A DNA stretch of 47,466 bases, taken from positions 1-47,466 of the forward strand of contig JAYUUO010000081.1 of the NCBI GenBank assembly GCA_043754515.1, written 5' to 3'. A program made the translations under genes and the position numbers. The DNA comes from Armatimonadota bacterium (GTDB taxonomy: Bacteria; Armatimonadota; Armatimonadia; Armatimonadales; Armatimonadaceae). The notes below the pieces were generated by a model. It searched no databases. It was given only the letters and a program-made list of their open reading frames with translations, and had not been told where the DNA came from. Positions 9,387 through 38,335 of this stretch are shown in pieces; position 1 is the first letter of the stretch, and every line of letters starts with the position of its first letter.

Positions 9387-9450
9387 TGTACCGCGCCGGG
9401 GGTTCGGCTGGGATATACTACAAGCGACAGTTGGAAAGGAACCCGATCCG

Positions 9451-9791
9451 ATGACCTGGGAGCAGATTCGTACGACGTACCCCGACCGATGGGTGCTGAT
9501 GGAAGTCGCTGAAGTCGCACGTCGAAGGCGACCGGTGTCTACGAGGAGTTGAGCGTGCTTGACACCGTGGATGAGAACGCCGACATTTTTCCGCGCTACA
9601 GAGATTATGAGAAGCGGTTCCCGGAGCGGGAGATTCTGTTTATACACGGCTCCCGCGTTGATCCCGATGTTCGCGTCATCAACCGCTTCGGCGCGAAGGT
9701 ATGCCGTGACTGCGATTGGGATACACGGCGGGTTGCCGTTCGTGACGCTGGACGTTTCGCAAGGTGGAGCTACCGTTACCTTGCAAAATAG
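9451..9791 (+). pseudogene. Frameshifted small protein of the type usually paired with a retropepsin-like protease
   Basis: MTWEQIRTTYPDRWVLME (from 9451) and VYEELSVLDT...REILFIHGSR lie in different frames; shift(s) at ~9505-9540. Confidence 0.6.
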
Positions 9792-10089
9792 GTTACTCGC
9801 CACCGGCTGTTCGCGGACGATTTTCGCGACAGACAGCGTCTCGGGTGTCGGAGTCGTGCCGGACGCGGACGCCGGTCTGCGCCGGATGGTCGGCAGCGAC
9901 GGCGTGGAGCGGGTAGTAGAAGCACAAGCCGACGCCGTTATTATGGACGGTATCCGCGTGGAAAACATCACGGTCCAACTCGGGACCCTTGACTACGGCG
10001 TCGCCATAGATGGAATCGTTGGCCTCGACTTGCTCCACGCGACACGCGCGACGATTGATCTTGACATGCTCGAACTGCGCGCGAAATAA
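9706..10089 (+). CDS. Retropepsin-like aspartic protease, catalytic Asp apparently lost
   Basis: GLPFVTL, LLATGCSRTIF (expected LLDTG), DYGVAIDGIVGLDLL; GTG start at 9706. Confidence 0.75.
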   Translation: MTAIGIHGGLPFVTLDVSQGGATVTLQNRLLATGCSRTIFATDSVSGVGVVPDADAGLRRMVGSDGVERVVEAQADAVIMDGIRVENITVQLGTLDYGVAIDGIVGLDLLHATRATIDLDMLELRAK

Positions 10090-10971: not shown

Positions 10972-13650
10972 CTAAGAAAGCTGAACGCGATTAACCCGGC
11001 TGGTCTCTCCCTCCAAGGAGATGTGGTATCGATTTGGGAAACGGTTCGCAAATGTTTCTTGATGTGAAACAATAACCACGCGCTCTAGAGTCTCTCCCAA
11101 TCTATGCATGACATCTGCCATGCCTTCCAGGTTCTTAGGGTCTAGACTGCCGAACCCCTCATCGATCATGACGGATCGAAGCCTTGTTTGCCCACCGACG
11201 ACACATTGGCCCAATGCGAGAGCGAGTGCCACGCTGACACGAAACTGTTGTGAACCAGACAGACCTTTGAGCAGAATTGGCTCCCCTGGTAACATCGTGT
11301 TTGCACATACGAGATTCAGAGCGGTGTTCGCATTGCGCCCTTCAATCGCTTTGGATTCCGAAAGGTGTAAAGTTCCTCCAGAAAGTTGCGCAAGCGTTTC
11401 GTTTGCCTTGCAGGTAATTAGCTGTTCCGCATTGCGGATCAATTCGCGTTGCAAGCCTTCATTCCCCAAGCAATCAGCCAAAAATTTCCATAAATCGCGA
11501 TCTCTGATAGTATCGTCGTACTCCTTTTGCACAACTTCACGCTCAGATTGTTGGCGTCGTAGTGCGTCACGATGGTTCAACGCACTCCGTTCAGCAATTT
11601 CGGTGTCGCGGGCTATCTCCTTGGCGACATACAGTTTCTCCTCTGCTTCAGGTAGCCCTAGCCGTGCATCATCGGGAAGAGACTCCATCTGGCGGGAAAG
11701 ATTGGTAGCCTCACTACGTTTGACCGTGAGTTCATATTCGGCATTGTCAAGACCCTCTAACATCTGTACGGCTGTCTGAGTCATTTCACACTCAGACTCT
11801 AATCGGGCGAGTTCGGTCTCAACCCTAATCGCGGGGTGGTCACGCCAAGCTGCAGGAAGTGCTCCGGTATCTTCACTCAGAGTTCGCGAACGCTCTTCGA
11901 CACCGGCTTGCCACTGATCAATCACCTGCTCAATGCCCTTCCAATCTTTGTGTTTTTCGCGCCAACGTTCGGCACTTTCAGCAAGTGATTTCATAGCCTG
12001 CAGGTCTGCCGGAGTTGGGTAGCCCTCGATCTCGCCACTGAGCCTCTTACGAGTAGCTTCATTAACCCTGCTCTTGGCTTCGTGAGAGAGCTGCCATTTT
12101 CGTTCGCATATAATCCTCGCCGATGCCGCGTCTTTTGTGGCGTTTTCCCATGCTCGCACAGATGCTGAATATTTACTGTCAGCGGCTTTAAGTTGTTCAA
12201 CCGCTCGTGTGAGAGATTCTTGTAGCTGACGTTCGGTACTGGTCGCAGTTGACAGTGCCTTACTAGCATTCAAAAGGTTTCCTTGAAGTGCCTGTAGTTG
12301 TTCTTCCCTCATCTCTGGGGTGAGAGGCTGACCACATATTCGACACATAGCCGCTTCGCCGCCATCAACAAGAACCACAAGTCTCTCTTCGATGTCTGTT
12401 TTAACACCTTGGCATCGTCCCTTTTCCTCGCGTGCTCTTTCCAAAGCCGCTCGTGTTGTTGTCTCGGTTTCGATGTACTCTCTTCCCGAGACATCAAACG
12501 AATCGAGTTGTGGCGCGTCTGCCTGAGCAGACTTGTTTTTCCAATCGCTTGTCGCCGTAAACGCTTCGTTACGTGCGTTACAGAAGGCTTCTACCGCAGG
12601 GAAGAATCTTTCTGCAAGATCAGTCTTGTTACACTTCTTCTCCAATGCCTCTCGAATGACGCCAACATCGACGGTCACATCTAGACCAAGTTCATGAACA
12701 AGATCGTGACACATCACACTTCGTTGTTCAAGATGTCGTGCGTGTTTTGCTTTGGCACCAGTTAATGCGTCGTGGGCTTTGAGTACTACACGGAGTACAG
12801 GGAGAATAGATGCCAATTCCCTATGCCGCATGGCGTGTTTGCGTACTGCATCCGCTTCGGCTATCACAGTCTCGATCTGCGATATCTCTCCGCTCAGTGT
12901 CGTGAGTCGCATCTTCCAATCGTCGAAATTCTTCGCATGGGTTACCATCACCGCACAGTGGTCCCGCATCTTTTGTGCCGACGAATATTCTTGCGAGGCG
13001 ATTTCGGCGGCAGATATAGCATTAGTAATCTCCTCATCAGTAACGACAGGGAGTGAGTTACCAATCAATCTTAAGGCAAAGTTTTTCACCACACCGGTTA
13101 ACCCGGCTTCACGCTTACTTGCAAGATCACACAATATTTCATAGTCGCGAAGGTTCATAATACGTTTCAGCAACTCAAACCGGCCTTTGGGGTCAGCCTT
13201 TACGATGCTATTCTCACCATTCTGTGGCAAGAAAACTGACATGGTGAACGACTCGTACTTGAGCCCAAGGATTTGTTCAATATGTCCAGTGCATTCGTCG
13301 CCTTCCGAAATCGCATGCCAGTTAGCGCCATCCCAGCGTAGTAGTTTTCCACTTACCGAGCCGCTCTTCCGCTTAATTCCTCGTTGCGACCTGTACAACA
13401 CTCCATTTGTGGAAAACTCGAACTCCACACTAGCGGCGTCGCTCTGGGTATTTACAAGCCCACGAGCGTTCTGTCCACCATGGCGGTGTTGCTTGAACAG
13501 AGCGAACGTGATTCCGTCAAAGACGGAAGATTTGCCTGCACCGTTATCTCCTGACAGCATCCATAGGCGGTTGTTGTCAGCCGAGAAGTCAAACTCCGCT
13601 TCATCTCGATAGGACAGAAAACCCTTTAATTTTAGCTTCATAGGTACCAT
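10972..13650 (-). CDS. sbcC: Rad50/SbcC-family SMC-like ATPase
   Basis: Walker A GDNGAGKSS, Q-loop FLPQ, coiled coils, zinc hook CRIC, signature LSGSQ, Walker B/D-loop IDEGFGSLD, H-loop VSH. Confidence 0.93.
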   Translation of the reverse strand: MVPMKLKLKGFLSYRDEAEFDFSADNNRLWMLSGDNGAGKSSVFDGITFALFKQHRHGGQNARGLVNTQSDAASVEFEFSTNGVLYRSQRGIKRKSGSVSGKLLRWDGANWHAISEGDECTGHIEQILGLKYESFTMSVFLPQNGENSIVKADPKGRFELLKRIMNLRDYEILCDLASKREAGLTGVVKNFALRLIGNSLPVVTDEEITNAISAAEIASQEYSSAQKMRDHCAVMVTHAKNFDDWKMRLTTLSGEISQIETVIAEADAVRKHAMRHRELASILPVLRVVLKAHDALTGAKAKHARHLEQRSVMCHDLVHELGLDVTVDVGVIREALEKKCNKTDLAERFFPAVEAFCNARNEAFTATSDWKNKSAQADAPQLDSFDVSGREYIETETTTRAALERAREEKGRCQGVKTDIEERLVVLVDGGEAAMCRICGQPLTPEMREEQLQALQGNLLNASKALSTATSTERQLQESLTRAVEQLKAADSKYSASVRAWENATKDAASARIICERKWQLSHEAKSRVNEATRKRLSGEIEGYPTPADLQAMKSLAESAERWREKHKDWKGIEQVIDQWQAGVEERSRTLSEDTGALPAAWRDHPAIRVETELARLESECEMTQTAVQMLEGLDNAEYELTVKRSEATNLSRQMESLPDDARLGLPEAEEKLYVAKEIARDTEIAERSALNHRDALRRQQSEREVVQKEYDDTIRDRDLWKFLADCLGNEGLQRELIRNAEQLITCKANETLAQLSGGTLHLSESKAIEGRNANTALNLVCANTMLPGEPILLKGLSGSQQFRVSVALALALGQCVVGGQTRLRSVMIDEGFGSLDPKNLEGMADVMHRLGETLERVVIVSHQETFANRFPNRYHISLEGETSRVNRVQLS

Positions 13651-14891
13651 TATAAGAGACTTTCCTCAGACGTAAACAATTCTTCAAGCATCAGCAATAA
13701 TCTCTCCCTGCGCGGATCGGTCGTATCCAGTTTACGCTGGAGGTATTCACGTGCTATCTGTTGTGCGTCCCCCGAATCTTGCTGTCCGAAAATTTCCTCA
13801 ATTTGCACTTCGCCAGACCCTGACTTAGCCCTCGCATCAGTTTGGTAAAGACGTGGGAAAAGAGTGCTGAGGCGCCGTTGTGCTGCTACGTAATCGTCTT
13901 GACCCGGTAGATAATGGATAGTAGCCTTTACCAAAACGGCTTCCAGCTCGCTTCGCGGACGATCACCCCATTCGCGCTCAATACGGTCAAGATCTTTCGC
14001 GTGGTCGTTGATTTCTGTCATAAGAAAGGGAGACGATGGTAGCCGTAATAGTTGTGGATCTTTAACACGTCCAGCCCGATTGATCTCGACGAGCGTAACA
14101 CTTTTCTCATCATCCCTCTCTCCTGCGTCAAGACTCTCAACCGAACCGCAGTACCTCATCCAGGGGGCATTATGTACGACCTCTTGCGGCTTATGAATAT
14201 GTCCAAAGGCTCCATACGCCCAGTATGTAGGCACATCGCTCTGCTCGAATACCACGTCTTCGTTCTCACTCAGCTTATATCCATTGCGCGTCGTTACCCC
14301 ACGTACCAGAATGTGACTGACTAAAATGGCGGCAGCATCTTTCTCAACGGCGGGACGGACTCGCTCTGCCATGAACCGACTGACCCGTTGAGCTTTGTGA
14401 GCATTCTCGCGCCCGATCTCCTCGAACGGTAAATCACGCAACCAAGAAGCCCCAGGATAAGGCATCAGAACAAACGGGTGAACTGCGTCCGTCTTATGAT
14501 CATGCAATCTAACGATCTTCGCAGTATTCGCCAGGTGAAACCTTCCCGGCGGTGACACTCCCCCTTTATCCACACCGTCGGGTATAAGGTTGAATGCACT
14601 GTTGAGTGATTCACAAAACGAATCATTATCGTGATTCCCTCGTACTGCAAGAATTGTCCCTCCTCGCCGGAGAAAAGGAACAAAAATTTGTTCGATGTTT
14701 CCAATCGCTTCTTTTAGACCGTCACGGGTCAGACGGTCACAGAAGAGGTCCCCCGCGATTATCAAAACGTCGACCGAATACTCTTCGAGATATTCTGCGA
14801 CACGCCTGACATTCTTCAGAATATCGTTTGCACGGCAAACTTCGCCTAGACGATGCCCCATATGCCAGTCACCTGTGTGTAATATTCGCAT
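13650..14891 (-). CDS. sbcD: Mre11/SbcD-family metallophosphoesterase nuclease
   Basis: MRILHTGDWHMG, AGDLF, GNHD, SH, FGHIHKPQ, YCGS; stop overlaps the sbcC start. Confidence 0.93.
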   Translation of the reverse strand: MRILHTGDWHMGHRLGEVCRANDILKNVRRVAEYLEEYSVDVLIIAGDLFCDRLTRDGLKEAIGNIEQIFVPFLRRGGTILAVRGNHDNDSFCESLNSAFNLIPDGVDKGGVSPPGRFHLANTAKIVRLHDHKTDAVHPFVLMPYPGASWLRDLPFEEIGRENAHKAQRVSRFMAERVRPAVEKDAAAILVSHILVRGVTTRNGYKLSENEDVVFEQSDVPTYWAYGAFGHIHKPQEVVHNAPWMRYCGSVESLDAGERDDEKSVTLVEINRAGRVKDPQLLRLPSSPFLMTEINDHAKDLDRIEREWGDRPRSELEAVLVKATIHYLPGQDDYVAAQRRLSTLFPRLYQTDARAKSGSGEVQIEEIFGQQDSGDAQQIAREYLQRKLDTTDPRRERLLLMLEELFTSEESLL

Positions 14892-14919
14892 AATACATTC
14901 TCCACTTCTCTGCTTTTGT

Positions 14920-16881
14920 TTAAATATCCCCGAAGGTTGATATATCTTCCGTTTCGCGGCCCGGTTCGTTACGCCCTATTCCGATATTTCTTTGGAGCGG
15001 TGAGGTGGTTATGTCAGCTTCTTCCTTCCGCATAGCCCAGATAGGAAAAGGAACATGCAAATACATGGGCTGGCGGAACCCGCTTTGCATCACGAGTTTC
15101 TCGTTCGGGCGCAGTCCTTCGGCGCGACGACGCGTGGCTTCTGAAAGGGTACGCCAGACGTCGGACCGCAATTCTACGCTACCCGTTTGCCCTAACACTT
15201 TCACGGCGGCGTTCTCCACCACCCGTTCGGAAACCATTGATGCCTGTTGTTGCGCCCCTAGTAGAATAACTCCCTGCGAGCGCATCTCGGCAGCTACGGT
15301 TTCCACAAGTTTGGTGATCGGGTCTTTCGCCCCGCGCGGGGCGAAGCGGTTCAACTCGTCTAGCACGATGAGGTAGCGAAGTCCGGGAACCGCCTTCGCG
15401 CCAGTGCGACTCTCAACCACCTGTCGTAAAACCGACGCTACCACGAAGCGTTGTAAGTGTGGTACGCCCGATAAACCGTTTAAATCAACGACACAAGGGT
15501 CGGTAATATCGGTTTGTGTAACATCGAGTGGATTACCGTCAATACCGTCTACGCGTAGCACACCCCGGCTTTCGTGAAGCAAAAGTTTTATACGTCGTTG
15601 CACCTTCAGAATTGTCGCCCGATGGTGTTCTCCCCCCAGAGCCTCTGGCTGGAGCCATTCCCTGAGATCAGCGAACGTTTGAATCGCTCTGTCCCGTCCT
15701 TGTGGAGCATCCGTGCGGAGTGTTCTCGATTCTACGCCGTCCTCGTCTACAGAGACATGAGTCAGCTTTTCCTCAATGTCGTATAAAACCGTAAGGAAGT
15801 TATCATTTGAGGTATCTTCTGCGGAAAAGAGATACAGAAATAATCCGCGCTCAATAATGTTCTTTAGCGACCAGCTGTAAGGAGTGACGTTCCTGTTTCC
15901 GGGGCGCCCGGTGGGGATCGGTTCGTTTCCGTTTTTTTGCCTGGGCGCGAAATAGCGAACATTCTCGAATGGTTTCGGCTCCGGCACCCCGATCTCTTGC
16001 CATGCCGTCCCGTGTGCCCCAACGTCAAAACCCCGGTTCGTATAATCCAGATAGAATAGGTCGAAGTTTTTGACGTTGAAAATGATGGGGACAGGGCGTG
16101 GCAACGTGTCTACGTTGGGCGTCTTCTCTCTCAGATCGCGGGCGTGACGAAGCAACATATAAACGACCTGCAACAGGAACGACGACTTTGTGGCGCGTCC
16201 CGCCGCGCCGCTGACATTCATGTGTCCGCCATTGCCGCCGAGAAGATAATCCAGATCGAGACAGCCGGGACCAGCGAAATGTGTGCCGCCGTTTTTGATC
16301 AGACCGACGGGGAGGCGGTTTTCTTCGCTTACTTCATCGATCCCATATGCTTTTGCCGCCGCCTCTGGTCCCGCAAGGCAGACTTTGCTTCGCTCACGGG
16401 GCGGTGCCAATCGCTCTGGATCGGCCCGTAGGATTACTGCATCGGCGTAAGTTATCCCTTCAGCTTTATAGGGTGGCTCGTCAGACAAATCGCCGTCAAA
16501 CTCGTCAATCTCCTGCCCCATATCGCGCCGTCTAGAACAACGATGTACTTCCTCTACAAGGGCAAAATACGTGACCGATTCGCCTGCACACTCTGACTCT
16601 GTTGTAACGATCTGTGTCGCTTCGACGCTAACTTCTTCGGGAACCCAGAAGTGGAAACGCGACGACGTTGCCTCCTGACGTGGCGGGGCACCAACACGAC
16701 CGACGACAGTTCTTCCCTCTTCAATAATGGCTCCCCGGTTTCGCCTCTCGGCGGGGTTTATTTCGAATCCATTAACTAAAGAGACCTCCCCCGCGCCGAG
16801 CATATCTGCAGGATTACCGATCATCTGTGTCCAGACCGCATCCGACCCGGTATCACCTATTTCATTCTCTTTCTCGTTCAT
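14920..16881 (-). CDS. herA: HerA-family ATPase/DNA translocase, bacterial type
   Basis: N-terminal HAS-barrel-like region (VGRVG...FHFWV), variant Walker A HMNVSGAAGRATKSS, FNVK, Walker B IVLDELNRFAP, RSQGVILLGAQQ. Start ATG 16881 after GAGAGGA. Confidence 0.88.
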   Translation of the reverse strand: MNEKENEIGDTGSDAVWTQMIGNPADMLGAGEVSLVNGFEINPAERRNRGAIIEEGRTVVGRVGAPPRQEATSSRFHFWVPEEVSVEATQIVTTESECAGESVTYFALVEEVHRCSRRRDMGQEIDEFDGDLSDEPPYKAEGITYADAVILRADPERLAPPRERSKVCLAGPEAAAKAYGIDEVSEENRLPVGLIKNGGTHFAGPGCLDLDYLLGGNGGHMNVSGAAGRATKSSFLLQVVYMLLRHARDLREKTPNVDTLPRPVPIIFNVKNFDLFYLDYTNRGFDVGAHGTAWQEIGVPEPKPFENVRYFAPRQKNGNEPIPTGRPGNRNVTPYSWSLKNIIERGLFLYLFSAEDTSNDNFLTVLYDIEEKLTHVSVDEDGVESRTLRTDAPQGRDRAIQTFADLREWLQPEALGGEHHRATILKVQRRIKLLLHESRGVLRVDGIDGNPLDVTQTDITDPCVVDLNGLSGVPHLQRFVVASVLRQVVESRTGAKAVPGLRYLIVLDELNRFAPRGAKDPITKLVETVAAEMRSQGVILLGAQQQASMVSERVVENAAVKVLGQTGSVELRSDVWRTLSEATRRRAEGLRPNEKLVMQSGFRQPMYLHVPFPIWAMRKEEADITTSPLQRNIGIGRNEPGRETEDISTFGDI

Positions 16882-16894
16882 AACATACTTCCTC

Positions 16895-18013
16895 TCATAG
16901 TGACGCAACCCGATAAAAACCGCGTGTCAGTCGCTCGATGCTTTGAAAACGCGCACCCAGAACTTCCTCAGCGCGGCGGATCGGTTCCAGAGTCACGGCA
17001 GCACGGCCGTAATAGGGATCACAGGTCACTCGCCGACAGAGCCACCCGGATAATCGGTTCACGAAGTCTAGGTCGCAGTGGGTGGTGTCTTCAAAGAATG
17101 ATCGCATCATTCCTACCCGCACTACTCCGCCCAGAGGGTCACCGCTTCCTTCCTTAAGACGCAAGTACCATGTGGTTATATTCATCGCATGCTTGTTGGA
17201 GCGATAAGTAATCAGAGGTGTTCTTTGTCCTGGCTTTAAATCATAAACGAGACGCCAGCCATCCCTATTCAGGAGACCAGTATTCGCGTGCGTTTTGATA
17301 ATGCCAAACAGTGGAGCGGTGGCATGCTCGGGCGTAGTTTTTTGCTCCAAAGGTCCGTCTACCAGAGTCGGGGTAGAGATGCCAACTGAGGAAACCATAT
17401 CGCGCTCGTGGCGGAACATTTCTTCGCGAGTACGGCTACGCGCATTTTCGCGCATCCATCCGATATTGAAAGGGTCTTCCCCTTCACGCAGGGGGCGGCT
17501 AACTAATAGGCGAATATTTTGCGCCGAGAGCGCGGTGGCGAAACGTTCGATCTCATCCCAAGCGAACAGATCAGCCATCAAAGAAACGACAACTTCCACG
17601 GAGCGCGATTCGGCGCAAAGAAACTCGGCATTTTCGCCACTGCTTCGTGCGGCATGCATGGCTACCGCGCCGACCTGAGCCAGCCGAAGCGGGACTGCAA
17701 ACCCTCCCGGCGCAATGAGGTATGCCACCGCGCTCCCTACATCCTTGCCGTCCACGAAGCGGGATGGGAGCCAAGCGATCTGTCTCGCCACGACACTCTT
17801 CTCCGGTGAAGCATTGATAGCCCGCCACCTAGATAGCGGGATCTCGTAGTCACATCCTATAGCATTGTATTCACCGTCTCCCGGTTCGTCCGCAACGTCC
17901 GCGGTGCCAGGTGGTGATGCAGAGCGGAAATCCGGCGCGTTGCTTTCCTGTGAACGTCGTGCCCCATGATCATGCAGAAAACTCATGCCGGATGCGGCTA
18001 ATGGATAGCGCAT
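16895..18013 (-). CDS. nurA: NurA-like nuclease
   Basis: Two DG motifs (FVDG, LVDGPL), GIIKTH, LKPGQRTP, WYLRL, GVVRV, PI..AE; directly upstream of herA. Confidence 0.75.
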   Translation of the reverse strand: MRYPLAASGMSFLHDHGARRSQESNAPDFRSASPPGTADVADEPGDGEYNAIGCDYEIPLSRWRAINASPEKSVVARQIAWLPSRFVDGKDVGSAVAYLIAPGGFAVPLRLAQVGAVAMHAARSSGENAEFLCAESRSVEVVVSLMADLFAWDEIERFATALSAQNIRLLVSRPLREGEDPFNIGWMRENARSRTREEMFRHERDMVSSVGISTPTLVDGPLEQKTTPEHATAPLFGIIKTHANTGLLNRDGWRLVYDLKPGQRTPLITYRSNKHAMNITTWYLRLKEGSGDPLGGVVRVGMMRSFFEDTTHCDLDFVNRLSGWLCRRVTCDPYYGRAAVTLEPIRRAEEVLGARFQSIERLTRGFYRVASL

Positions 18014-18690
18014 GAAATATCTCCTTCCTTTTTCCGCAACGCCTCGAGGCGCTGACGCATCACTGCCCCGCTAACCAGAAAATCTGTTGCGAGGCGGTCT
18101 TGCCGTGCCACATTAGATCGCGCGGTGAGCGCGTCCTGCCTCATGCGCAAAATGTCTTCGGGTACCAACAGGTGAGCGGCAAAAGCATTTGCCTCGCGTT
18201 CCCGCGCTTCCAAATTACTGTCATCTTCCCCGTCGCCGCCGCTACTTGCCGGGTTAAAACCATCGAATAATCCGGGACGGAATGCTTCAGGGCTATCTCG
18301 TACGCTCTCCCGCCAGTTTTGTAGCGCGGGTCGAAAATGCAGAAAGAGGTGCCCCAATTCATGCGCCACCGAGAACCGTCGCCGTGTCACAGAGTCGTTC
18401 TGGTTGACGAACAAAAATGCCATGTCACCTACCGCGTACAGGAAACCCGATAGCGGTTCGTCCCGATTCCTTGCAAGGATTGACAAAGGTTCTCGTAAGA
18501 CCCGCCGCCGTGTCAGGAATGTTTCCGCAACACCTGCAGTCAATCCGGGTAATTCCACGCACGATATAGCGAACCGCTCTAACACAGGCGCGAGGGGGGC
18601 AACAGGAAAAATTTGGGATGGAGGTGGGACATCTACCTCATCATAAACGGATAAAACTACTCGCGCCCAATCACCTCTATCTCTCATCAT
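17998..18690 (-). CDS. ImmA/IrrE-family zinc metallopeptidase, stand-alone
   Basis: RRRFSVAHELGH (HExxH), EREANAFAAHLLVP, F.VS..VM..RL. Confidence 0.92.
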   Translation of the reverse strand: MMRDRGDWARVVLSVYDEVDVPPPSQIFPVAPLAPVLERFAISCVELPGLTAGVAETFLTRRRVLREPLSILARNRDEPLSGFLYAVGDMAFLFVNQNDSVTRRRFSVAHELGHLFLHFRPALQNWRESVRDSPEAFRPGLFDGFNPASSGGDGEDDSNLEAREREANAFAAHLLVPEDILRMRQDALTARSNVARQDRLATDFLVSGAVMRQRLEALRKKEGDISCAIH

Positions 18691-19310
18691 TTCTCTCCGC
18701 TCTTGTCGCCAGAAGGTCTTTTATCGTTTCGTAATCGTTCCCGTCGTGCGGCGGCGAGGCGGAACGTTCCTTCACGTTCCATAGCCACGGCAAGTAACGT
18801 TTCCTGCACAAACCGTACCACTGATACTCCGATGCCCTGACCTACCTGTGCTACACGTGTCAGGAGTGTGCGGGTGTCGCGCTGAGTCAGACTGGTAGGA
18901 ACCTGCTCATCCCCCGGTAGAGACTCCAGTCGGTCGGCAATACGTGAAATAATCACATGTTCCGCAGGCTGCGTCATTTCAGTTGGGGCATCACTGCGCA
19001 GACGCACGGCAACATCTCGCCATGTTACAGGGGGGACGGGAAGCTCTACTGCAAACTGACGGTTCTCCGCGTTTAAACCGGTCAGGCTGCGCACCAAGGG
19101 AGCGGAAAAGGTCTGCGATGCCGCCGCCACTACCCGCTCTTCCGTTTGATGTTGTTCCTCGTATGCCAGATGCGTTTCCCATATGGCATCTACAAGAATA
19201 GGACTATTCTTGGCTTCAGCAAGCAGATTTGCTTGTTCCTCCAGATCGCCCGAATCCACCGCGCAAAGATAACGGAGCAAAAACAGTTCTTTAATGTCTT
19301 GTGAGATCAT
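18687..19310 (-). CDS. Hypothetical cytoplasmic protein, candidate anti-sigma factor
   Basis: 207 aa; ATGA overlaps with both the sigma and peptidase genes; helical, no TM segment; RLAAARR near the C-terminus. Confidence 0.7.
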   Translation of the reverse strand: MISQDIKELFLLRYLCAVDSGDLEEQANLLAEAKNSPILVDAIWETHLAYEEQHQTEERVVAAASQTFSAPLVRSLTGLNAENRQFAVELPVPPVTWRDVAVRLRSDAPTEMTQPAEHVIISRIADRLESLPGDEQVPTSLTQRDTRTLLTRVAQVGQGIGVSVVRFVQETLLAVAMEREGTFRLAAARRERLRNDKRPSGDKSGEK

Positions 19311-19999
19311 CTGGTTGCTCCTGTGTTGATGGCCGACCCGACACGGGGACGAAGCATCTCACGCTCTTCGGTTGATATCGAATACTTTAGCCGCGTCAGG
19401 GCGCGATGTAGGCGTACCCGTACCGTTCCTGGTAGAACCACTTGCCCGCTTTTTGAATCTGTCAATTTTTGCGCCATTTCCTCGCTACTATTGCCTTCCA
19501 GAACTATCCCCTGGATGAGGTCGCGGTCTGACTCGGAGCAGGATGCCAGTACCCGTTCCACCCACAAAGATCCAGTGACGTCTCGCTCCGTTTGCTGTTC
19601 GCTCTGGATACGCTCCCAAACGCCGGATATGGTGTCCCCCGACCCACTATCACCGGTTTCAACAATCCGCTTCTTGTTCTCAGCAAACAACCGCTCCTTC
19701 CATTGCTTTGCGCAGTTGTTGGCGATACCCAGAATCCATTGCCGTACTGTGCCCCGGCTCGGATCGAACCGGGACGTTTTAGCGAAGACTACTTTGGCAA
19801 CCTCAACTAACAACTCGCGGGACGCTTCGTCGGGACTTAAACCGAGAGGCTTGATGATAGGACGCACTATGCTTTTCAGGACAGCGATGACACTGCTTTC
19901 GTTTTGTTGCCACCAATGAACGATGAAATCGTTTTTGCTTTGTTCTGAATCGTCCAGTGGTAACGAACTGTTATATTGGTATGAGTCTTTTAAATGCAT
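19307..19999 (-). CDS. ECF-type sigma-70 factor
   Basis: Region 2 (RFDPSRGTVRQWILGIANN) and region 4 (EGNSSEEMA...GTVRVRLHRALTRL). Confidence 0.88.
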   Translation of the reverse strand: MHLKDSYQYNSSLPLDDSEQSKNDFIVHWWQQNESSVIAVLKSIVRPIIKPLGLSPDEASRELLVEVAKVVFAKTSRFDPSRGTVRQWILGIANNCAKQWKERLFAENKKRIVETGDSGSGDTISGVWERIQSEQQTERDVTGSLWVERVLASCSESDRDLIQGIVLEGNSSEEMAQKLTDSKSGQVVLPGTVRVRLHRALTRLKYSISTEEREMLRPRVGSAINTGATR

Positions 20000-20037
20000 C
20001 CTCAGCTATATCTCCGCACCATTCTTCATAAACTAAT

Positions 20038-20063
20038 TGCGTTATTAGCAACATTTTGTTACA
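20038..20063 (-). promoter_or_regulatory. Candidate ECF promoter TGTAAC-N16-CGCA
   Basis: -35 at 20063-20058, -10 at 20041-20038, 38 bp upstream of the sigma start; fits the generic ECF AAC...CG architecture. Confidence 0.45.
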
Positions 20064-20237
20064 AGAATCGAGCCACTGCTTAAATTATTTATGATTTGAG
20101 GAAAATCCAAAAGCGTCCCCGCTTTTTAACGATTGATCTATACTTGCAGTCTTCTGGCATGAATCTTGCATTGCTGTTTTCAATAACAAACCTGACAGAC
20201 TCATAGAGTCGTACGCCTTTTGAAGGAGAAGCCACCA

Positions 20238-20904
20238 TTGAGTTATCGTGACCGAAATGATCAGCCCCTGTACCGAAGTTGCTACGACGCTGTCGGGCAG
20301 TCGCTCAACGAGGTGAAAGAACTCAGAGCGCAGGGTATCTTCGGCTTGCTCCGATTGCGCTGGGGGGCATGGATCGAGGAACGCGCCGCCGGGACACATC
20401 ACTCGCCGCGCGAAATCCCGACAGGTCGTTCTCCTCGCGCAACAGAAATTGGTAGAGCAGACCATCTCCACGGCACAGGCGGTAGAAGCGATGAATCAGG
20501 ATAACGAACGCCAGGCCATCGGTACGATGGTATTCGGGCAACGCGAAATGCTCGCCGAAGCGGCTCTGCAACCGGGAGGACTTATTGCCGCTCCGCCCAG
20601 GCAGATCAACGCGGTGCCATTTCCCGGTGACGATGATAACGCATCTGGGTATGGCGTGGTTTCTGCCGCCGATGGAACCGTCGCTTCCAGTGCCGCACCC
20701 ATGCGCCCGTATATGACCGATGTGCAGATCGATAATCTCGCAAAGCAATTCCTCGCCCGGTTCCCTATCGGGGACGACTACGTGCGCGAGGTTCGGGGTC
20801 AAGAAGATGCGGGAAGCCGCCCGAGAGAGCGAAGTCCGGCGACAACAGGACGCGGCACGGTTCGCGGCGGCACGGGCGCGGGAAGCGAAGCAGGCGAAGG
20901 TTAG
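20238..20904 (+). pseudogene. Frameshifted hypothetical gene
   Basis: TTG after AAGGAGA opens one frame; a shift near 20390 gives GHITRRAKSRQVVLLAQQKL, which joins ORF 20449-20904. Confidence 0.4.
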
Positions 20905-22517: not shown

Positions 22518-22618
22518 AAGTTCTCCGCGTCCTTCTCCGAGTGATTCTCGTAATGTGCGAAGTTTGCACATTGCAAGGAGCATTCTACCATGCCGTGTGC
22601 GCTATTCGCACATGGATT

Positions 22619-22891
22619 ATGGAAAAGTCTATCCACAGCGAGGAGTACGTCATCTTCGCCCGCCGCTTAAAGGAAGCCCGGCTTGCGGCAGGTCTCAAGC
22701 AGACGGAACTTGCGGCACGACTCTTGAAGCCGCACTCGTACATCAGCCGGATAGAGAACCGGCAGATTCGAGTGGACGTGATTGAATTGCGGCAAATATG
22801 CGGCGCGATTGGTGTGTCGTTCCGCCTATTTATTAATAGCCTTGAAGATGAGCTGGAAATGCAGAAGGATAGAAGCAACAACGCTTTATAA
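22619..22891 (+). CDS. XRE-family HTH regulator
   Basis: MEKSIHSEEY...LKEARLAAGLKQTELAARL...ISRIENRQIRVDVIEL. Confidence 0.88.
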   Translation: MEKSIHSEEYVIFARRLKEARLAAGLKQTELAARLLKPHSYISRIENRQIRVDVIELRQICGAIGVSFRLFINSLEDELEMQKDRSNNAL

Positions 22892-22946: not shown

Positions 22947-24308
22947 TCATCGGTTTTCCGTGATGATTACCTCCTGACGGTCTTTCGCCACACAGACCCC
23001 GTTTTTGACGACGTAGCATTCCACATAATGGGGCCCTGCGAATGCCGTAGGTTCTTGGATCGCGCGCACATTTCCGCGGGACTCGATCTGGCCCCGAATG
23101 CAGTCATTCCGCCGTGCCTCATCCCCGTTGTTTTTTATCTTCCAGTAGATCCGGACTGGCTCAGGAACGTCGCACTGCGTAATTTGAAACTCCATGCGGC
23201 GTCCGATCTGTACTTTGCTCCCCGAACTACTCAGTTTATAGTCTCGGAAGCCGTGCTTCCGCATTACTCGCCCCGTAATGCGGACTTTATATTCCGGCTG
23301 TATGGCGACCGCAATGCCATGGTCACTCAAGTCTTCCTCGGTGTCGCGGTAAGAAGCAGGTGGGAAGAATGCCGATTTGACCAACCCGCTCGATTTTTGC
23401 GCCGCGGGTTCTTCGGGGAAAGCATCCCCGAAAATCTTGCGCCACTTGCGAACGCTCTCCGGCTTATCCTGCTCTAGATAGGCGTCATCAATCCACTCGG
23501 CATACCGGATGATCTGGGCGCGGAAGTTGGAGTATTTGTCCTGATCCCACCTGTCACCGAAGTTTTCGCCCGTCCCGCTCGGGTCAAGGATGGTAGGCAT
23601 TATGACGTTAACATGGACATATTCACTGAGGCGATTCATCACGGTACGGAGCGTGGTTGGGACATCCGCGTAGCAATTCGGCTCCGCTAAGAGTGCGGCA
23701 TCATTGACCCGGCCACCGAGGAGCACATTAAGAACGACCGATTTTACGTCGAAACTTTTCTTATAGTTTCTCAGATACTTCACGAGGCGGATTACCTTGA
23801 CCAGATGGTAGTTCGAAGTGCGGTGCTTCTCTTCCAACCAATCATTATATCCTTCGGGATTGGTTTCTTCATAATTGTTCTCGTGTCGGTTAGTCACATA
23901 GCGTTTCTCATGCCGTGCCAAAAAGGGCACGACATCTATGTGGAAGTCGCCCGCGTAATTCACGGTGACACATCGGGTTTTACGGCTCACCTTGTCCCTA
24001 TAAACGGGACTGCCCCGGAGACAAGTGTACAGATTCTGGACGTAATCTTTCGCCTCCCATCCGCTGACCTCGTCCAGAAAAAATAGAATATCCGCGTCAA
24101 AATCTTCATAATCTTGCACCGGCCTGATGATGGTACGGTGTGCGTAGGAGCCTTGCGATATCGTGTCGCCGAAATATGTGGCAAACATATCGCTCCCCCG
24201 TAAAAAGTTTGTGACCGCGTTCACGCTCGCATTGAGGCGCGAAAGTCGGGTGGCGTTGAGGTTGACCTCGTTTTCGAGGAAGTCTTTAAAGTTGTTTACT
24301 AGTTTCAT
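22947..24308 (-). CDS. CBASS CD-NTase (SMODS) with a C-terminal AGS-C domain
   Basis: QGSY...DFDADI...HIDVVP, TNPEGY, VIRLVKYLR; C-terminal YWKIKNNGDEA..RGQI..EPTAFAGPHYVECYVVKNG. Confidence 0.9.
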   Translation of the reverse strand: MKLVNNFKDFLENEVNLNATRLSRLNASVNAVTNFLRGSDMFATYFGDTISQGSYAHRTIIRPVQDYEDFDADILFFLDEVSGWEAKDYVQNLYTCLRGSPVYRDKVSRKTRCVTVNYAGDFHIDVVPFLARHEKRYVTNRHENNYEETNPEGYNDWLEEKHRTSNYHLVKVIRLVKYLRNYKKSFDVKSVVLNVLLGGRVNDAALLAEPNCYADVPTTLRTVMNRLSEYVHVNVIMPTILDPSGTGENFGDRWDQDKYSNFRAQIIRYAEWIDDAYLEQDKPESVRKWRKIFGDAFPEEPAAQKSSGLVKSAFFPPASYRDTEEDLSDHGIAVAIQPEYKVRITGRVMRKHGFRDYKLSSSGSKVQIGRRMEFQITQCDVPEPVRIYWKIKNNGDEARRNDCIRGQIESRGNVRAIQEPTAFAGPHYVECYVVKNGVCVAKDRQEVIITENR

Positions 24309-25504
24309 TGTTCATTTACCGTCAGAGCGTATTCAAAGGTGTTAAACATTCGGTCGTAGATACGAATGCCGGGTTGCACGTGGCGCATGAGACCGCGTCC
24401 GCAGGCTATGGCCGCCGTGACGGGCGCGGCGGGGAAGAGATGAATCGTTCGGAAAGACTTACTTCGCGCCTCCAAACCACTCAGAAAATCATGGTAGCAG
24501 TCGGTAAACGCCCGTAGCGTTGCTCGTGACCGGAATAGGTCTCGGTTGGGAGCGACGCCCTCCGGCCGGATCTCATATACCGGGCGACCATCAGCCACGT
24601 ACCCTGGTAATTCGCTAATATCGATTGACCCGCTCAGTGAGACGATCAAAATCACATCGGTGGAATCGGCCCCATCCCGCAGGAGCCTAGTGGTGAAAGT
24701 AGTCGGCTGTAAATCGTTCTGCCACTGCCACGTTTCGCCCTCTCCTCGGTGCTTCTGGTACAGGTCAGCGGGGATTTTATCGTCGATCGCATATCCGAGG
24801 TAAACAAGAAGGGGTATACGGGCGATGGCAAAGACCGACAGGTGCGAAATATGTTTTGTCCGCACCCCATCCGTTAAACGCATCAGAAACGAATCGATTA
24901 TGCTTTTTGCCGCTATCCAATAGGCAGTGCTAATCGTCTCCGGGTCAGGCAGTGACGACAAGTCAATCTCTATAGAGTGCCTATCAGCTGTGAGAGGGAA
25001 GTAGGCATAACGGTCGCCGCTGGCGATCACCGTCTGCATAGCAGTGTTCCGGGATAATTCAGGGACGGAGCCGCGCACCAGCCCGAGCATTCTAACCACC
25101 GCCGTTTCTTGAGACGGTTTCATCTCGGTCAAATGGCGGATTCGTGTTTCGTGCCGGTGCTTGAGACCGAGCAATCGCTCTTCCGTAAAATAGTCGCGTG
25201 TCGATGTGTCATCGACAATCTTATGGCACACCTGACACAACAACACGAGATTCTCGACGTCGTTGCGCTCACCAATCGGGACGGCAGACGCGCCACGTGG
25301 TGAGCCGGGAGTGTCCTGCCATCCGGCGATATGCGCCCTCTCCCCGAGATTTATGATGCTCTCGAAATCAGGCTCCTCTAGAAGGTAGTCATTGCATTTA
25401 GCGCACCGCCCGCCGGAACGCACCCATAGCAACAAAGTCTCTTTTTCTAGAATACGACGCTTCGGCTCGGTAGGCGATTTATTGGTATCTGCTCGCTTTC
25501 TCAT
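24305..25504 (-). CDS. CBASS HNH-SAVED effector (Cap5-like)
   Basis: CAKC, GERAHI, NLVLLCQVCHKIVD (HNH); HLSVFAIARIPLLVYLG, SLSG, IHLFPAAP..AIACG (SAVED). ATGA overlap with the CD-NTase. Confidence 0.9.
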   Translation of the reverse strand: MRKRADTNKSPTEPKRRILEKETLLLWVRSGGRCAKCNDYLLEEPDFESIINLGERAHIAGWQDTPGSPRGASAVPIGERNDVENLVLLCQVCHKIVDDTSTRDYFTEERLLGLKHRHETRIRHLTEMKPSQETAVVRMLGLVRGSVPELSRNTAMQTVIASGDRYAYFPLTADRHSIEIDLSSLPDPETISTAYWIAAKSIIDSFLMRLTDGVRTKHISHLSVFAIARIPLLVYLGYAIDDKIPADLYQKHRGEGETWQWQNDLQPTTFTTRLLRDGADSTDVILIVSLSGSIDISELPGYVADGRPVYEIRPEGVAPNRDLFRSRATLRAFTDCYHDFLSGLEARSKSFRTIHLFPAAPVTAAIACGRGLMRHVQPGIRIYDRMFNTFEYALTVNEQ

Positions 25505-25608: not shown

Positions 25609-28600
25609 CTACACCCACTCACTCGCGACGGTTTCGGCTTGTAGCAGCACCATATCTACCGCTTGCTCCGTTTTGTCTGGCGGGTAACCGTGCTTCCGCA
25701 ATACCCGCTTCACGATGCGGCGCAGATTCGCCTTTGCCGATTCTTTGATCGCCCAGTCCGTGGTCACGTTATCCCTGACCACCTTAACAAGATCGCGGGC
25801 GATGGCTCGAAGCGCGGCGTCGCCCATGATTTTCACCGCCGAATCGTTCACTTCCAGCGCGTCGTAGAACGCCACCTCGTCGCTCGTCAGGCCGAGTGCT
25901 TCGCCCCGCACCTGTGCTTCGCGCATCTCTTTCGCAAGGGATATCAGCTCCTCTATCACTTGCGCGGTCTCGATGCCCCGGCTCTGGTATCTGCGAATCG
26001 CCAGCGCGAGCATTTCCGAGAACTGCTTGCCCTGCACGACGTTGCCCTTCGCCCGCGCCTTGATCTCACCTTCCAAAAGTTTTCGCAACGCTTCCACGGC
26101 GACATTTTTGTGCGGCAGGTTCTGTACCTCGGCTAAAAACTCGTCGGAGAGGATGGACACATCCGGCTTGTTCAGCCCCGCCGCCGAGAAAATATCTATC
26201 ACCTCGTCCGACACGACGGAGCGCGAAACGATTTGCCGGACCGCGTGATTGATCTGCTCATTCGTCGGTTTGGTGGTTTTCCCGCCGTCCTCACCGTCTT
26301 TCAGAAGCGCGGCGCGAACCGATTGGAAGAACGCCACGTCGTCCACCACGCGAAGCGCGGTGTCGTTCGCCACCGATAGCGCGAACGCACGACTCGCCGC
26401 GAGCGACGCCGCGAGGAACCGCTCCCGCGAATCGTCGCCGTTTGCCCAGTCACGCTCCAGGATATGATCCTGCGCGGCGGGGATGATGGCGATCCGCTCG
26501 GCGGGTGTGCCAGTTTTGAACGCCGCGTAATCAAACCTGTGGAACAGGTCGGCGCACACTTCGAGTTCGGACAGTAGCACCGCGACCGCTTCGTTTTGAT
26601 CTAACACGCCGTCGCCCTGCCCGCCGCTTTCGGCGTACCGCGCCATCGCTTTCTTGAGTTCGTCCGCGATCCCAATATAGTCCACGACCAAGCCGCCCGG
26701 CTTGTCCTTGAAGACGCGGTTGACGCGGGCGATCGCCTGCATCAGGTTGTGTTCCTTCATCGGCTTGTCGATGTACATCGTGTGCAGGCACGGCGCGTCG
26801 AAGCCCGTGAGCCACATATCACGCACGATAACGAGTTGGAGTGGGTCGGCGGGGTCGCGCATCCGGCTTGCCAGGGCGTCGCGCTCCTTCTTGGTGCTGA
26901 TATGCCCTTGCCAGTCGAGCGGGTCGGACGCCGAGCCGGTCATCACCACTTTAATTGTGCCGGTAGCATCATCGTCCGAGTGCCAGTCGGGGCGCAATTT
27001 GACCAGTTCGTCGTACAGGGCGACCGCGATGCGGCGGCTCATCGAAACGATCATTCCCTTGCCCGCCATCGCCTCCTGCCGCTTCCCGAAATGCGCCACG
27101 ACGTCGCGGGCGACAAGGGCGAGCCGCTTCTCGGACCCGACCATGGCTTCGAGTTGCGCCCACTTGCGCTTCGCGGCTTCTTTAAGGGTGTCTTCCGCGC
27201 CCTCGGTCACTTCGGCGAAGTCGGGGTCAATCTTGGGCTTTTCGGCTTCGTCTAAGGCTAGCTTGGCGAGGCGTCCTTCGTAGTAGATGGGAACCGTCGC
27301 GCCGTCCTCGACCGCCCGCTTGATGTCGTAGACACTGATCGTGTCGCCGAACACGCCCCGCGTGGATCGGTCGGCAGATTCTATCGGGGTTCCGGTGAAG
27401 GCGATGAATGTGGCGTTCGGCAGGGCGTTCCGCAGGTGGCGGGCGTAGCCGTCAATGAAGTCGTACTGCGAGCGGTGCGCCTCGTCCGCCAGCACCACGA
27501 CGTTCCGCCGGTCGGTTAGCAGGGGAAACGACTCCCCTTTCTCGTCCACGGAAAACTTCTGCACGGTGGTGAACACGATGCCGCCTTGCGTTACGGAGAG
27601 CAGGCTTCGCAGATGCTCGCGGTTCCGGGCGTTCGCCGGGGTTTGCCGGAGGAGCGCGGCACACCGGGAGAACGTGCCGAAGAGCTGCTCATCCAAGTCG
27701 TTGCGGTCGGTCAGCACCACGATCGTAGGGTTAGCGAGTTCGGGGGCTCGCGCGATCACCCCGGCATAAAACGCCATCGTGAGTGACTTGCCGGAGCCTT
27801 GCGTATGCCAGACGACCCCGGCGCGTCCGTCGCCCGCTCCCGTGGCGGCGTTGATTGTGGCGTCGGCGGCGGTGCGGACGGCGTGGAACTGGTGATACCC
27901 GGCAATCTTCTTGACGATTCTGCCGCCTTCTTCCTCGAACACGACGAACGAGCGCAGGAACGACAGGAGCTGCGCCGGGTCGAGCAGTCCGCGAATCAGC
28001 ACCTCGAGCTCCGGCACGGTTTTTGGGGCGGGCTTTTCGCCGTCCACGGTGCGCCAAGGGGCGAACCGCTCGAAGTCGGCGGAAAGCGAGCCGACCCGCG
28101 CCGTGGTTCCGTCGGCGATGATTAGTAGTTCGTTCGTCAGGAACAGCGACGGGATTTGCGCCTTGTAGGTTTGCAATTGGTCAAACGCTTTCTGCACCGT
28201 GGCGTTCGCGTCGGCGAGGTTTTTGAGTTCCACCACGGCAAGCGGCAAGCCGTTCACAAACACTACTATGTCGGGGCGTCGCTCCTTCGTTTCCTTCACG
28301 GTGAACTGGTTCACGGCAAGAAAAGCGTTATTCGCGGGGTTATCGAAGTCGAGAACGCGCACCAAAATGCCGCTCATTGTGCCGTCGGGGCGGCGTGTCT
28401 CGACCGAGACGCCGCTCACTAAGAGTTCGTGAAAAGCGCGGTTGTTGAGAAGGGGCGACTGGCTCGCGGGGGAAAGTAGCTTGCGCCGCGCTTCAAGCAG
28501 GGCGGATGTGGGAACGCCGGGGTTCAGTTTGGCGAGGGCGTCGTCAAGGCGGGCGGTCAGCACCACATCGGCGTAGGAGTCACGCTCACTCGCAGGTGCG

Positions 28601-28692
28601 CCGGGGGCGATGGTCGCGCCGCTCAGGATTTCGTAGCCAGTTTGTGCGAGCCAATCGAGGGCGGCTTCCTCTACCACGGATTCAGTGATCAT
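25609..28692 (-). CDS. hsdR: Type I restriction enzyme R subunit
   Basis: [54 protein letters not shown]. Confidence 0.96.
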
Positions 28693-28808
28693 TGTTTTGT
28701 TCGTCCTTTTGCCGTGATGACAGTTTTCATACTACAGCTATTGTTTCAGATGGTGGGCGTGTCTGTCGAGCGATCGCCGTGTTTTCTGTGTACTACGAAG
28801 CGCAACGA

Positions 28809-33159: not shown

Positions 33160-33198
33160 CTCGCCTCTTCCCTGTTTAGTGCGAATAAAATGACTTCC

Positions 33199-33296
33199 TT
33201 CTTTTACACGATGTTGCCATGTGTCAACAAAATACTCTTTTTCTTTATACGTTTTTGGAATGTGTAAAGAAAGTGGCACTTTTCTTTACACGTTTT
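33199..33296. promoter_or_regulatory. Cluster of repeated operator-like boxes upstream of fic
   Basis: TTCTTT(T)A[C/T]ACG at ~33199, ~33241 and ~33282; inverted copy GTGTAAAGAAA at 33262; TTGACA on the minus strand at 33227-33222. Confidence 0.55.
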
Positions 33297-35040: not shown

Positions 35041-35059
35041 TCGCTCCCCCGTACTTTAT

Positions 35060-35105
35060 AAGTTAAATCAGATTTAACTTTATCGCACCCATGTGGGATT
35101 GTCAA
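35060..35105 (-). promoter_or_regulatory. Sigma70 promoter of hsdM overlapped by a perfect palindrome
   Basis: TTGACA (35105-35100)-17 bp-TAAAGT (35082-35077); AAGTTAAATC-A-GATTTAACTT at 35060-35080. Confidence 0.7.
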
Positions 35106-36993: not shown

Positions 36994-37015
36994 GGCGAGA
37001 AGTTAAAGGGATGAT

Positions 37016-37543: not shown

Positions 37544-37583
37544 GGCAGGTAATATAGCCGTATCAACAACCAGACCTTTGCAT

Positions 37584-38312: not shown

Positions 38313-38335
38313 GGATTCGAGCATAGTCGTGGTGT

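Follow-up and report, generated by a model that had tools for sequence, protein, structure and literature searches.

Are the zinc peptidases of the M78 (ImmA/IrrE) family confined to helix-turn-helix (HTH) repressors, which make up all of their partners in the literature consulted, or can such a peptidase also govern a sigma factor? The question is raised by a 47,466-nucleotide contig of an Armatimonadota bacterium (JAYUUO010000081.1, assembly GCA_043754515.1), the whole of which is called the window here. An initial annotation, made from the letters alone, described three open reading frames (ORFs) encoding a sigma factor of the extracytoplasmic function (ECF) type, a 207-residue soluble protein (ORF2) and an M78 peptidase, and the ORF listing confirms all three, on the minus strand. 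It proposed that a damage or single-stranded DNA (ssDNA) signal activates the peptidase, which cleaves ORF2 and frees the sigma factor.

The model that we favour, and that as a whole we regard as reasonably probable, is that ORF2 is an anti-sigma factor cut by the M78 peptidase before Arg-189, with release of the sigma factor led by a degron. The N-domain of ORF2 would hold the sigma factor inactive, and its C-domain, probably XRE-derived, would dock on the peptidase. Upon activation the peptidase would cut just before Arg-189 to leave an end reading ...RLAAA, and ClpXP would destroy the Ala-ended protein and free the sigma factor. The freed sigma factor would then transcribe its own operon from a TGTAAC-N16-GCAAT promoter, producing a burst of NurA-HerA and SbcCD. 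The window's genome encodes ClpX.

The sigma-ORF2-peptidase triad

The triad heads an operon that continues with nurA, herA, sbcD and sbcC (Table I), four genes (10972–18013) that lie outside the coordinates of the initial annotation. The sigma/ORF2 and ORF2/peptidase joints are each a 4-nt ATGA overlap, herA and sbcD are separated by 28 nt, and every other joint of the operon overlaps. Contigs from three DNA runs of one study, one of which may itself have supplied this DNA, show no listed difference across positions 16800–20400.

A scan based on NurA yielded 73 loci, whose record titles name Armatimonadota, Cyanobacteria, Chloroflexota, Acidobacteriota, Planctomycetota and single others; the closest named relatives by NurA (44–45% identity) are Armatimonadota. 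Eight loci are cut off upstream, leaving 65 informative ones. The sigma factor, ORF2 and the peptidase all lie upstream of the NurA homologue in 59 of these 65 loci, and with 59 full triads among the 73 the arrangement is beyond chance. The remaining loci comprise three with the peptidase only and three without any of the triad. Downstream, herA, sbcD and sbcC continue in 41 of the 43 triad loci (of the 59) that are long enough. As separate observations, five loci have a split cassette, with nurA lacking herA-sbcCD nearby or nurA-herA-sbcCD lacking the triad (L055, L056, L058, L059, L104), and an apparent single ORF of 967 residues contains both NurA and HerA in another (L090:2247-5150).

The ORF2 profile gathers 828 clusters (50% identity) at E ≤ 1e-3 and matches 9 of 301 genomes in the window's phylum, Armatimonadota. 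In two genome samples centred on G301 and G303, ORF2 is present in the centre genome only (1/301 each), no RNA data set was listed as a carrier, and a single-sequence homologue search with ORF2 returned its self-match alone. A second scan, seeded with the peptidase, gave 80 metagenome loci, 18 from the close clade (2 of them cut off upstream) and 62 distant. ORF2 lies upstream of the close-clade peptidases in 16 of 16 loci with upstream DNA. Upstream of the 62 distant peptidases there are 22 XRE genes, 7 fused XRE domains, 5 other small partners and 19 other genes, and 9 loci are cut off. One of the 22 loci with an upstream XRE gene, L219, is actually a sigma-partner-peptidase triad.

The absence of an XRE gene from the window's operon, remarked on in the initial annotation, was borne out, the nearest one lying 2.5 kb away on the opposite strand (22541–22891). 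This gene was considered as a conserved substrate and rejected: an XRE gene occurs no more than 1.5 kb upstream in 2 of 54 triad loci, a count for which 41 of the 54 have 1.5 kb of sequence and the XRE profile is weak (10 seeds).

The cassette is spread patchily over several phyla, two cyanobacterial copies are on plasmids (L085, L086), and defence genes often adjoin. Its carriers include the cultured strains Calothrix PCC 7103, Tolypothrix PCC 7101, Chlorogloeopsis PCC 6912 and Zavarzinella formosa. A clear defence gene is among the two nearest ORFs per side in 12 of 37 loci, by a hand tally with no matched control that counted Cas, Argonaute, bacteriophage exclusion (BREX), restriction, cyclic oligonucleotide-based antiphage signaling system (CBASS), SAVED and PDC-S37 genes and left out generic kinases and helicases. 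Tentatively, a role in defence is somewhat favoured over housekeeping repair.

The window peptidase matches Pfam Peptidase_M78 (PF06114) over the cut-off (E 8e-18) and PADLOC capP (8e-18). Its HELGH motif occupies residues 110–114, and His-110, Glu-111, His-114 and Glu-164 are kept in 58 of 58 peptidase rows (Glu-166 in 55). The family member P0064 superposes on CapP with Z 12.4 (root mean square deviation 4.5, 173 aligned) and on PprI with Z 10.8 (3.7, 162 aligned), and CapP and PprI entries also head the Foldseek results. At the C-terminus there is no GAF-like domain, the chain ending only 13–38 residues after xxVS, a motif in the last HTH helix, for 57 of 58 rows.

ORF2 and the peptidase occur as natural fusions in 9 of the top 150 ORF2 representatives and in 3 of the 73 NurA loci (L076, L084, L109); a search among longer proteins of 463–2000 residues, a range above most fusions, found none. 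Two apparent sigma-ORF2 fusions (L068, L111) were rejected as frameshifts, since the usual C-terminus and stop codon of the sigma factor are found in a different reading frame. The model of a natural ORF2-peptidase fusion has a predicted template modeling score (pTM) of 0.69; by our own arithmetic, which has no contact map behind it, 0.48–0.55 is expected if the peptidase alone is rigid and 0.64–0.71 if one ORF2 domain is placed. The modelled value fits one ORF2 domain placed on the peptidase. The fusions and the strict adjacency support the link between peptidase and partner on which the initial annotation relied. It is very likely that the peptidase acts on ORF2, and likely that it does so by cutting.

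The N-domain of ORF2, the sigma factor and its promoter

ORF2 matches no Pfam or NCBIfam family. Its AlphaFold2 model consists of two helical domains (mean predicted local distance difference test 86.5, pTM 0.53), and the N-terminus described earlier as helical, including the segment YLCAVDSGDLEEQANLL that begins at residue 14, is all helical in the model. In the natural-fusion model the N-domain has helices at residues 2–26, 29–41 and 43–59 plus a separate fourth at 67–78; helices 3 and 4 are merged in the model of the window ORF2. Three helices and a linked fourth form the layout of class I anti-sigma domains as described in PMC7406223. Fold searches with the whole ORF2 model gave no Foldseek match at E ≤ 0.001 and none with Z ≥ 8. 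PupR (5cam) reaches Z 5.3–5.8, tied with unrelated bundles, and no anti-sigma domain was singled out; nor was there a significant sequence or fold match between ORF2 and known anti-sigma domains in the searches run.

The relatives of the N-domain point to the sigma factor. In Chloroflexota the ORF2 profile matches only the N-terminus (first 60–90 residues) of 12 proteins of 392–512 residues, all of which contain a single hydrophobic segment, extend into a large region at the C-terminus and stand directly behind an ECF sigma gene. HHalign relates the ORF2 N-domain to these N-termini of single-transmembrane proteins with 99.3% probability (E 1e-20), and the reverse profile finds 182 of 204 ORF2 rows and, in the window's genome, ORF2 alone. 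The 11 Chloroflexota sigma factors tested nest within the triad sigma factors (98% branch with L057 in a quick tree), and 10 of 10 wider Chloroflexota loci (9–11 kb) contain neither the peptidase nor NurA. Since the single-transmembrane proteins occur without a nearby peptidase, the N-domain appears to travel with the sigma factor and the C-domain with the peptidase gene. A module swap is seen in L093, where a sigma factor of another clade is accompanied by an otherwise normal ORF2 that is preceded by an extra N-terminus typical of the partners in that other clade (E 6e-11); such an added N-terminus is present in 1 of 204 ORF2 rows. As an aside, the transmembrane segments of the Chloroflexota proteins, which are unannotated (L160-L170, L173), often start with VAA, IAA or AAA, and ABC transporter genes follow in 2 of 3 loci checked.

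Across 25 thinned loci, N-domain distances track those of the sigma factor beyond what the peptidase and NurA account for (partial Mantel r 0.28, p 0.0005), while C-domain distances do not track the sigma factor (r 0.02); distance-correlation tests of this kind overstate among kin. Some results weigh against the anti-sigma reading and the division of labour between the domains. C-domain distances do not follow the peptidase beyond NurA (r 0.055, p 0.27), and the three NurA loci with the peptidase only have neither sigma nor ORF2 nearby. It is solely through their architecture that the Chloroflexota proteins count as anti-sigma factors, and 11 of them are interrelated (30–99% identity), mostly from one lineage, with at least two kinds of outer domain. 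Homology, module swaps and co-variation nevertheless support the reading of ORF2 as an anti-sigma factor that the initial annotation had taken from gene position. Judged from sequence comparison, the N-domain is likely an anti-sigma domain, and it is highly probable that ORF2 binds the sigma factor.

The window sigma factor matches ECF models under their curated cut-offs (best NCBIfam E 2.4e-9). Members of its family carry regions 2 and 4, matching Sigma70_r4_2 in 51 and Sigma70_r2 in 37 of 55 cases. Read by eye, residues ~176–192 of the window protein hold an insertion of about 7 residues in the turn of the region-4 helix-turn-helix.

A motif TGTAAC/G-N15-17-GCAAT was found de novo in 37 upstream regions (score 13.2 versus 11.2–11.7 across four shuffles). 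In 13 held-out triad loci it scores 11.1 versus 7.4 for shuffled sequence (Fisher p 5e-5), and in four loci of the membrane-anchored type 9.5 versus 6.3. It is at background in five distant triads and in 20 other ECF upstream regions (5.8 versus 6.0 for the 20). The assignment is tempered by the held-out loci themselves, only 3 of 13 of which are singly significant; when the motif was sought de novo within the folds of a cross-validation, it reappeared in 0 of 4 and in 1 of 3. For ranking sites in the genome the matrix was refined without the window but seeded from a matrix that includes it, and the held-out test was relied on instead. We infer that the sigma factor reads the TGTAAC promoter.

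The window's genome contains a RecA gene and two LexA genes, upstream of which there is no convincing site (scores 4.0, 8.1 and 11.0), and no repair gene follows any of the eight best-scoring genome sites that were looked at. The sites thus give no support to a global damage regulon, and because recA and lexA lack convincing sites the sigma factor looks private to its own operon. One genome site scoring equal to that of the window lies between divergent parB-like and parA-like genes (G000:C302 near 9305). Two tandem copies of the motif are present in eight cyanobacterial loci (L062, L064, L066, L069, L085, L087, L088, L095). The text and one supplement of the ECF classification in PMC7826278 do not mention M78, IrrE or NurA.

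The cut site, the C-domain and the trigger

The RLAAARR tail noted at the outset starts at residue 184, and an alignment of homologues shows conservation within LAAAR: Ala-187 and Arg-189 are invariant in all 55 ORF2 rows, L126 (frameshifted) and L096 (duplicate) being left out. At this place 140 of 150 ORF2 representatives carry the pattern xA[AT]R, compared with 60 of 1119 windows taken as background; the basic tail that follows has a median length of 22 residues, and AA precedes the Arg in 96 of the 140. The position of the Arg mirrors known cut sites. DdrO is reported to be cut between Leu-106 and Arg-107 with loss of 23 residues (PMC6868357), and CapH between Phe-82 and Arg-83 within a helix, where R83A blocks cutting (bioRxiv 2022.04.27.489752). 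A cut between Ala-188 and Arg-189 would expose an Ala-ended degron and thereby account for release of the sigma factor through loss of a distant tail. In RseA (VAA; PMC3597663) and CalpT (LAA; bioRxiv 2024.05.08.593097), as described in the respective sources, an initial cut uncovers such ends, and the protein is then degraded and its sigma factor set free.

The predicted cut and degron also meet with contrary evidence. In 44 of the 140 motifs the residue before the Arg is Thr, which would give no AA end, and both models keep LAAAR helical, at the tip of a long helix and never in a strand. According to PMC6868357, ImmR is cut between Phe and Met, so that Arg need not follow every cut, and no cleavage was detected in the action of Rir; in the account of PMC3597663, RslA ending in AAA withstood ClpXP. 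With AT before the Arg in so many motifs, the degron step stands at about an even chance, and we regard a cut at Arg-189 with degron exposure as evenly poised.

The Thr-containing motifs and the helical state of LAAAR would suit an alternative in which ORF2 is an anti-sigma factor and the sigma factor is freed when the peptidase binds ORF2, as a Rir-like anti-anti-sigma, or cuts elsewhere, AAR then being a docking or dimer element. The in-frame ORF2-peptidase fusions fit such a stoichiometric partner, and Rir inhibits Crh with cleavage undetected as far as PMC6868357 reports. We consider this alternative unlikely, given that the zinc ligands and the catalytic Glu are all kept (58/58), that the Arg is placed as in DdrO and CapH, and that similar tails (LAAR, YAR, FTR) end partners in more distant triads that cannot be aligned with ORF2. 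The preferred model remains cutting of ORF2 before Arg-189.

The ancestry of the C-domain was traced through a bridge family, A7, to which the L219 partner belongs (24 of 32 sequences aligned). The L219 partner has a weak HTH_3 match (E 7.6e-4, below the cut-off) and an IAARR tail. A7 aligns with the ORF2 family end to end (91%, E 1.1e-6, 157 columns), and XRE domains match its C-domain (95.6%, E 1.2e-8). The direct comparison of ORF2 with XRE domains is weak (8.8%, E 0.004), the bridge link restricted to the C-domain reaches 19% (E 0.0012; reversed control E 0.16), and genome-built sets for XRE and zf-HC2 gave ORF2 no significant match in first profile tests (0.2–2.3%). There was no usable match of the C-domain to named Atlas clusters, and a PDB sequence search with the ORF2 profile returned designed proteins and unrelated matches only. 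In view of the 8.8% direct link and the 19% C-domain bridge, XRE ancestry is probable, not proven.

Relative to both XRE and A7, ORF2 shows an identical 8-residue gap at the helix-turn-helix, in place of which the model has one helix (115–130), and 0 of 55 ORF2 rows match a Pfam HTH family. Sequence comparison thus suggests that the C-domain probably derives from an XRE domain whose helix-turn-helix is broken, and with the C-domain bridged in this way the partner is probably a rewired XRE protein rather than a replacement for one. The initial annotation had spoken of an anti-sigma factor instead of an XRE repressor; this stands in that ORF2 has no intact HTH, and does not in that its C-domain itself appears XRE-descended. 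PMC12828697 presents AlphaFold models of IrrE-DdrO in which the peptidase is contacted by a docked XRE domain, and describes no such contact for ImmA or Rir. A candidate evolutionary intermediate is seen in L219 (1066-2944) and alignment A7, where an ORF2-like N-domain is followed by a weak XRE helix-turn-helix.

An XRE-derived C-domain could also belong to an operon repressor that still binds DNA and is cut as in CapH/CapP, with the sigma factor as regulated output and an N-domain that only dimerises. Weak HTH_3 matches are kept in 5 of 24 sequences of A7, and a neighbouring Atlas cluster (score 0.85) has HTH_31 in 13% of its members. This is improbable for ORF2 itself, in which the eight helix-turn-helix residues are gone and no row matches an HTH family, and the N-domain is common to membrane-anchored proteins behind sigma factors of the same clade.

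Direct activation by ssDNA, the signal first proposed, is doubtful. Without its GAF domain PprI loses ssDNA activation, as reported in PMC10904395, and the GAF-less ImmA and Rir receive no stimulation from ssDNA in the account of PMC12828697. Since the window peptidase also lacks this domain, direct ssDNA sensing is unlikely, and ssDNA binding as the trigger has little in its favour. The trigger is likely to be DNA damage or infection, read indirectly, to judge from the output genes. The fuller proposal, in which ssDNA directly activates the peptidase and the cut alone releases the sigma factor, draws on the ssDNA activation of IrrE/PprI and CapP (PMC10904395; bioRxiv 2022.04.27.489752), on NurA-HerA and SbcCD, which would generate ssDNA, and on an additional beta-rich stretch that the fusion model shows behind HExxH, but is very improbable for a peptidase without GAF domain, a cut that takes only ~19 tail residues ~100 residues away from the N-domain, and the precedent of CalpT, whose sigma factor stayed bound after the cut alone (bioRxiv 2024.05.08.593097). 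The triad may help to learn what switches on M78 peptidases that lack GAF, ImmA-type proteins among them.

Related systems and neighbouring genes

The cassette would work like CalpL/T/S or RseA and appears to be built from IrrE/XRE parts, joining two known kinds of system. With IrrE(PprI)/DdrO, CapP/CapH and ImmA/ImmR it shares an M78 peptidase with HExxH and HTH, a two-domain partner with an XRE-type domain (a probable one in ORF2), a conserved Arg ~20 residues from the partner's C-terminus, and partner-peptidase fusions. It differs in the added N-terminal domain and broken HTH of ORF2 and in its predicted output, sigma release instead of derepression. In lacking a GAF domain the peptidase is like ImmA and unlike the ssDNA switches IrrE and CapP.

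CalpL-CalpT-CalpS, as described in bioRxiv 2024.05.08.593097, likewise places a soluble protease, an anti-sigma factor and a sigma factor in one cassette, with an LAA degron shown for CalpT and predicted here. CalpL, however, is a Lon-SAVED protease activated by cyclic tetra-adenylate, whereas the triad peptidase is of the M78 family without a SAVED or Lon match, and the triad heads nurA-herA-sbcCD rather than belonging to a type III CRISPR system. RseA/sigmaE and RsdA/sigmaD resemble the triad in a partner gene directly behind the ECF gene, three helices with a fourth (for ORF2, in the fusion model), an autoregulatory ECF promoter, predicted for the triad, and an Ala-ended (VAA) degron that is exposed by the first cut for ClpXP and predicted for ORF2; ORF2, in contrast, is predicted to be soluble, and site-1 and site-2 membrane proteases would not be needed. 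The same four enzymes are combined in NurA-HerA with SbcCD (Mre11-Rad50) of Deinococcus and archaea, but here a private sigma switch heads the operon. DdvA/DdvS of Myxococcus also puts defence-island genes (CBASS-CRISPR) under an ECF sigma and anti-sigma factor; that anti-sigma is transmembrane, and no M78 peptidase is mentioned in the available text of PMC11506125.

Distant sigma-partner-M78 triads have partners that do not align significantly with ORF2 and end in LAAR-like (L241, L253, L257), YAR-like (L218) or FTR-like (L224, L247) sequences. An SbcD-like gene follows the L224 and L247 triads, and the latter also has an SbcC-like gene. A second triad type (L241:1174-2981, L253:4845-6678, L257:4779-6675, L242, L263) consists of a divergent sigma factor, a ~140-residue partner, in most with LTLAARK and then xLSD, and an M78 peptidase whose ~270 residues leave room for an extra C-terminal domain. 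L218:756-3713 encodes a sigma factor, a 175-residue partner and a 558-residue M78 peptidase, the long C-terminal extension of which looks ATPase- or kinase-like by eye and has no Pfam match.

Tentatively, and at rather less than even chance, an IrrE/XRE derepression switch may have been rewired to sigma activation by grafting an anti-sigma domain onto the XRE substrate, with the decayed HTH as a docking module and the cut site as a cryptic ClpXP degron, and this may recur in several unalignable sigma-partner-M78 lineages. If true, these would make up a widespread and so far undescribed class of ECF systems, gated by M78 peptidases in the cytoplasm and in control of genes for DNA processing and defence. 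A literature search with subscription papers mostly outside it found no description of the cassette. An anti-sigma substrate would connect IrrE, ImmA and CapP to ECF signalling through a soluble three-gene protease-gated circuit. It would also be a snapshot of regulatory rewiring, with the apparent intermediate, the L219 family with its weak HTH, still in databases.

Table I. Positions in the window of the operon genes, ORF2 domains and predicted sites
Feature	Position	Strand	Basis or remark
Predicted promoter motif, second, weaker copy	20168..20197	-	score 15.6, rank 19 among 76 sites scoring at least 14
Predicted autoregulatory ECF promoter, TGTAACA-N16-GCAATTA	20034..20063	-	35 nt before sigma start; joint top genome score
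ECF-type sigma factor, regions 2 and 4	19307..19999	-	230 aa; ECF models below cut-off, family matches Sigma70_r4_2/Sigma70_r2
ORF2, predicted soluble anti-sigma factor and peptidase partner	18687..19310	-	207 aa; 828 clusters at E ≤ 1e-3; AlphaFold2 model
ORF2 N-domain, residues 1–85, acidic helical bundle, predicted sigma-binding domain	19056..19310	-	HHalign, models, co-variation
ORF2 C-domain, residues 93–183, probably decayed XRE domain, predicted peptidase docking site	18762..19034	-	bridge family, HHalign
LAAAR motif, residues 185–189, predicted cut Ala-188/Arg-189 leaving Ala-ended degron	18744..18758	-	motif conservation
M78 (ImmA/IrrE) zinc peptidase, peptidase and HTH, no GAF domain	17998..18690	-	230 aa; HELGH at 18349–18363
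NurA-like nuclease	16895..18013	-	372 aa; family profile vs NurA chain 7f6d_H, E 5.8e-12
HerA-like ATPase	14920..16908	-	up to 662 aa; HerA chain 7f6d_B, E 1.8e-50
SbcD/Mre11 nuclease	13650..14891	-	413 aa; TIGR00619 over cut-off, E 2.5e-24
SbcC/Rad50 ATPase	10972..13650	-	892 aa; TIGR00618 E 1.9e-46, below cut-off; SMC_N and AAA_23 over cut-off

Around the operon, the XRE gene at 22541–22891 (plus strand) adjoins a CBASS pair, an SMODS/AGS-C cyclase (22947–24308) and an HNH-SAVED effector (24305–25504). The stretch 25609–38408, upstream of the operon, contains type I restriction-modification genes, among which an AlbA_2/RecG-C gene and one for a Fic protein are inserted, and at 37584–38408 it encodes a Mrr-type endonuclease. 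Just 3' of the operon and on the same strand, positions 7113–9971 encode a family B DNA polymerase of 952 residues with a long unannotated N-terminus.

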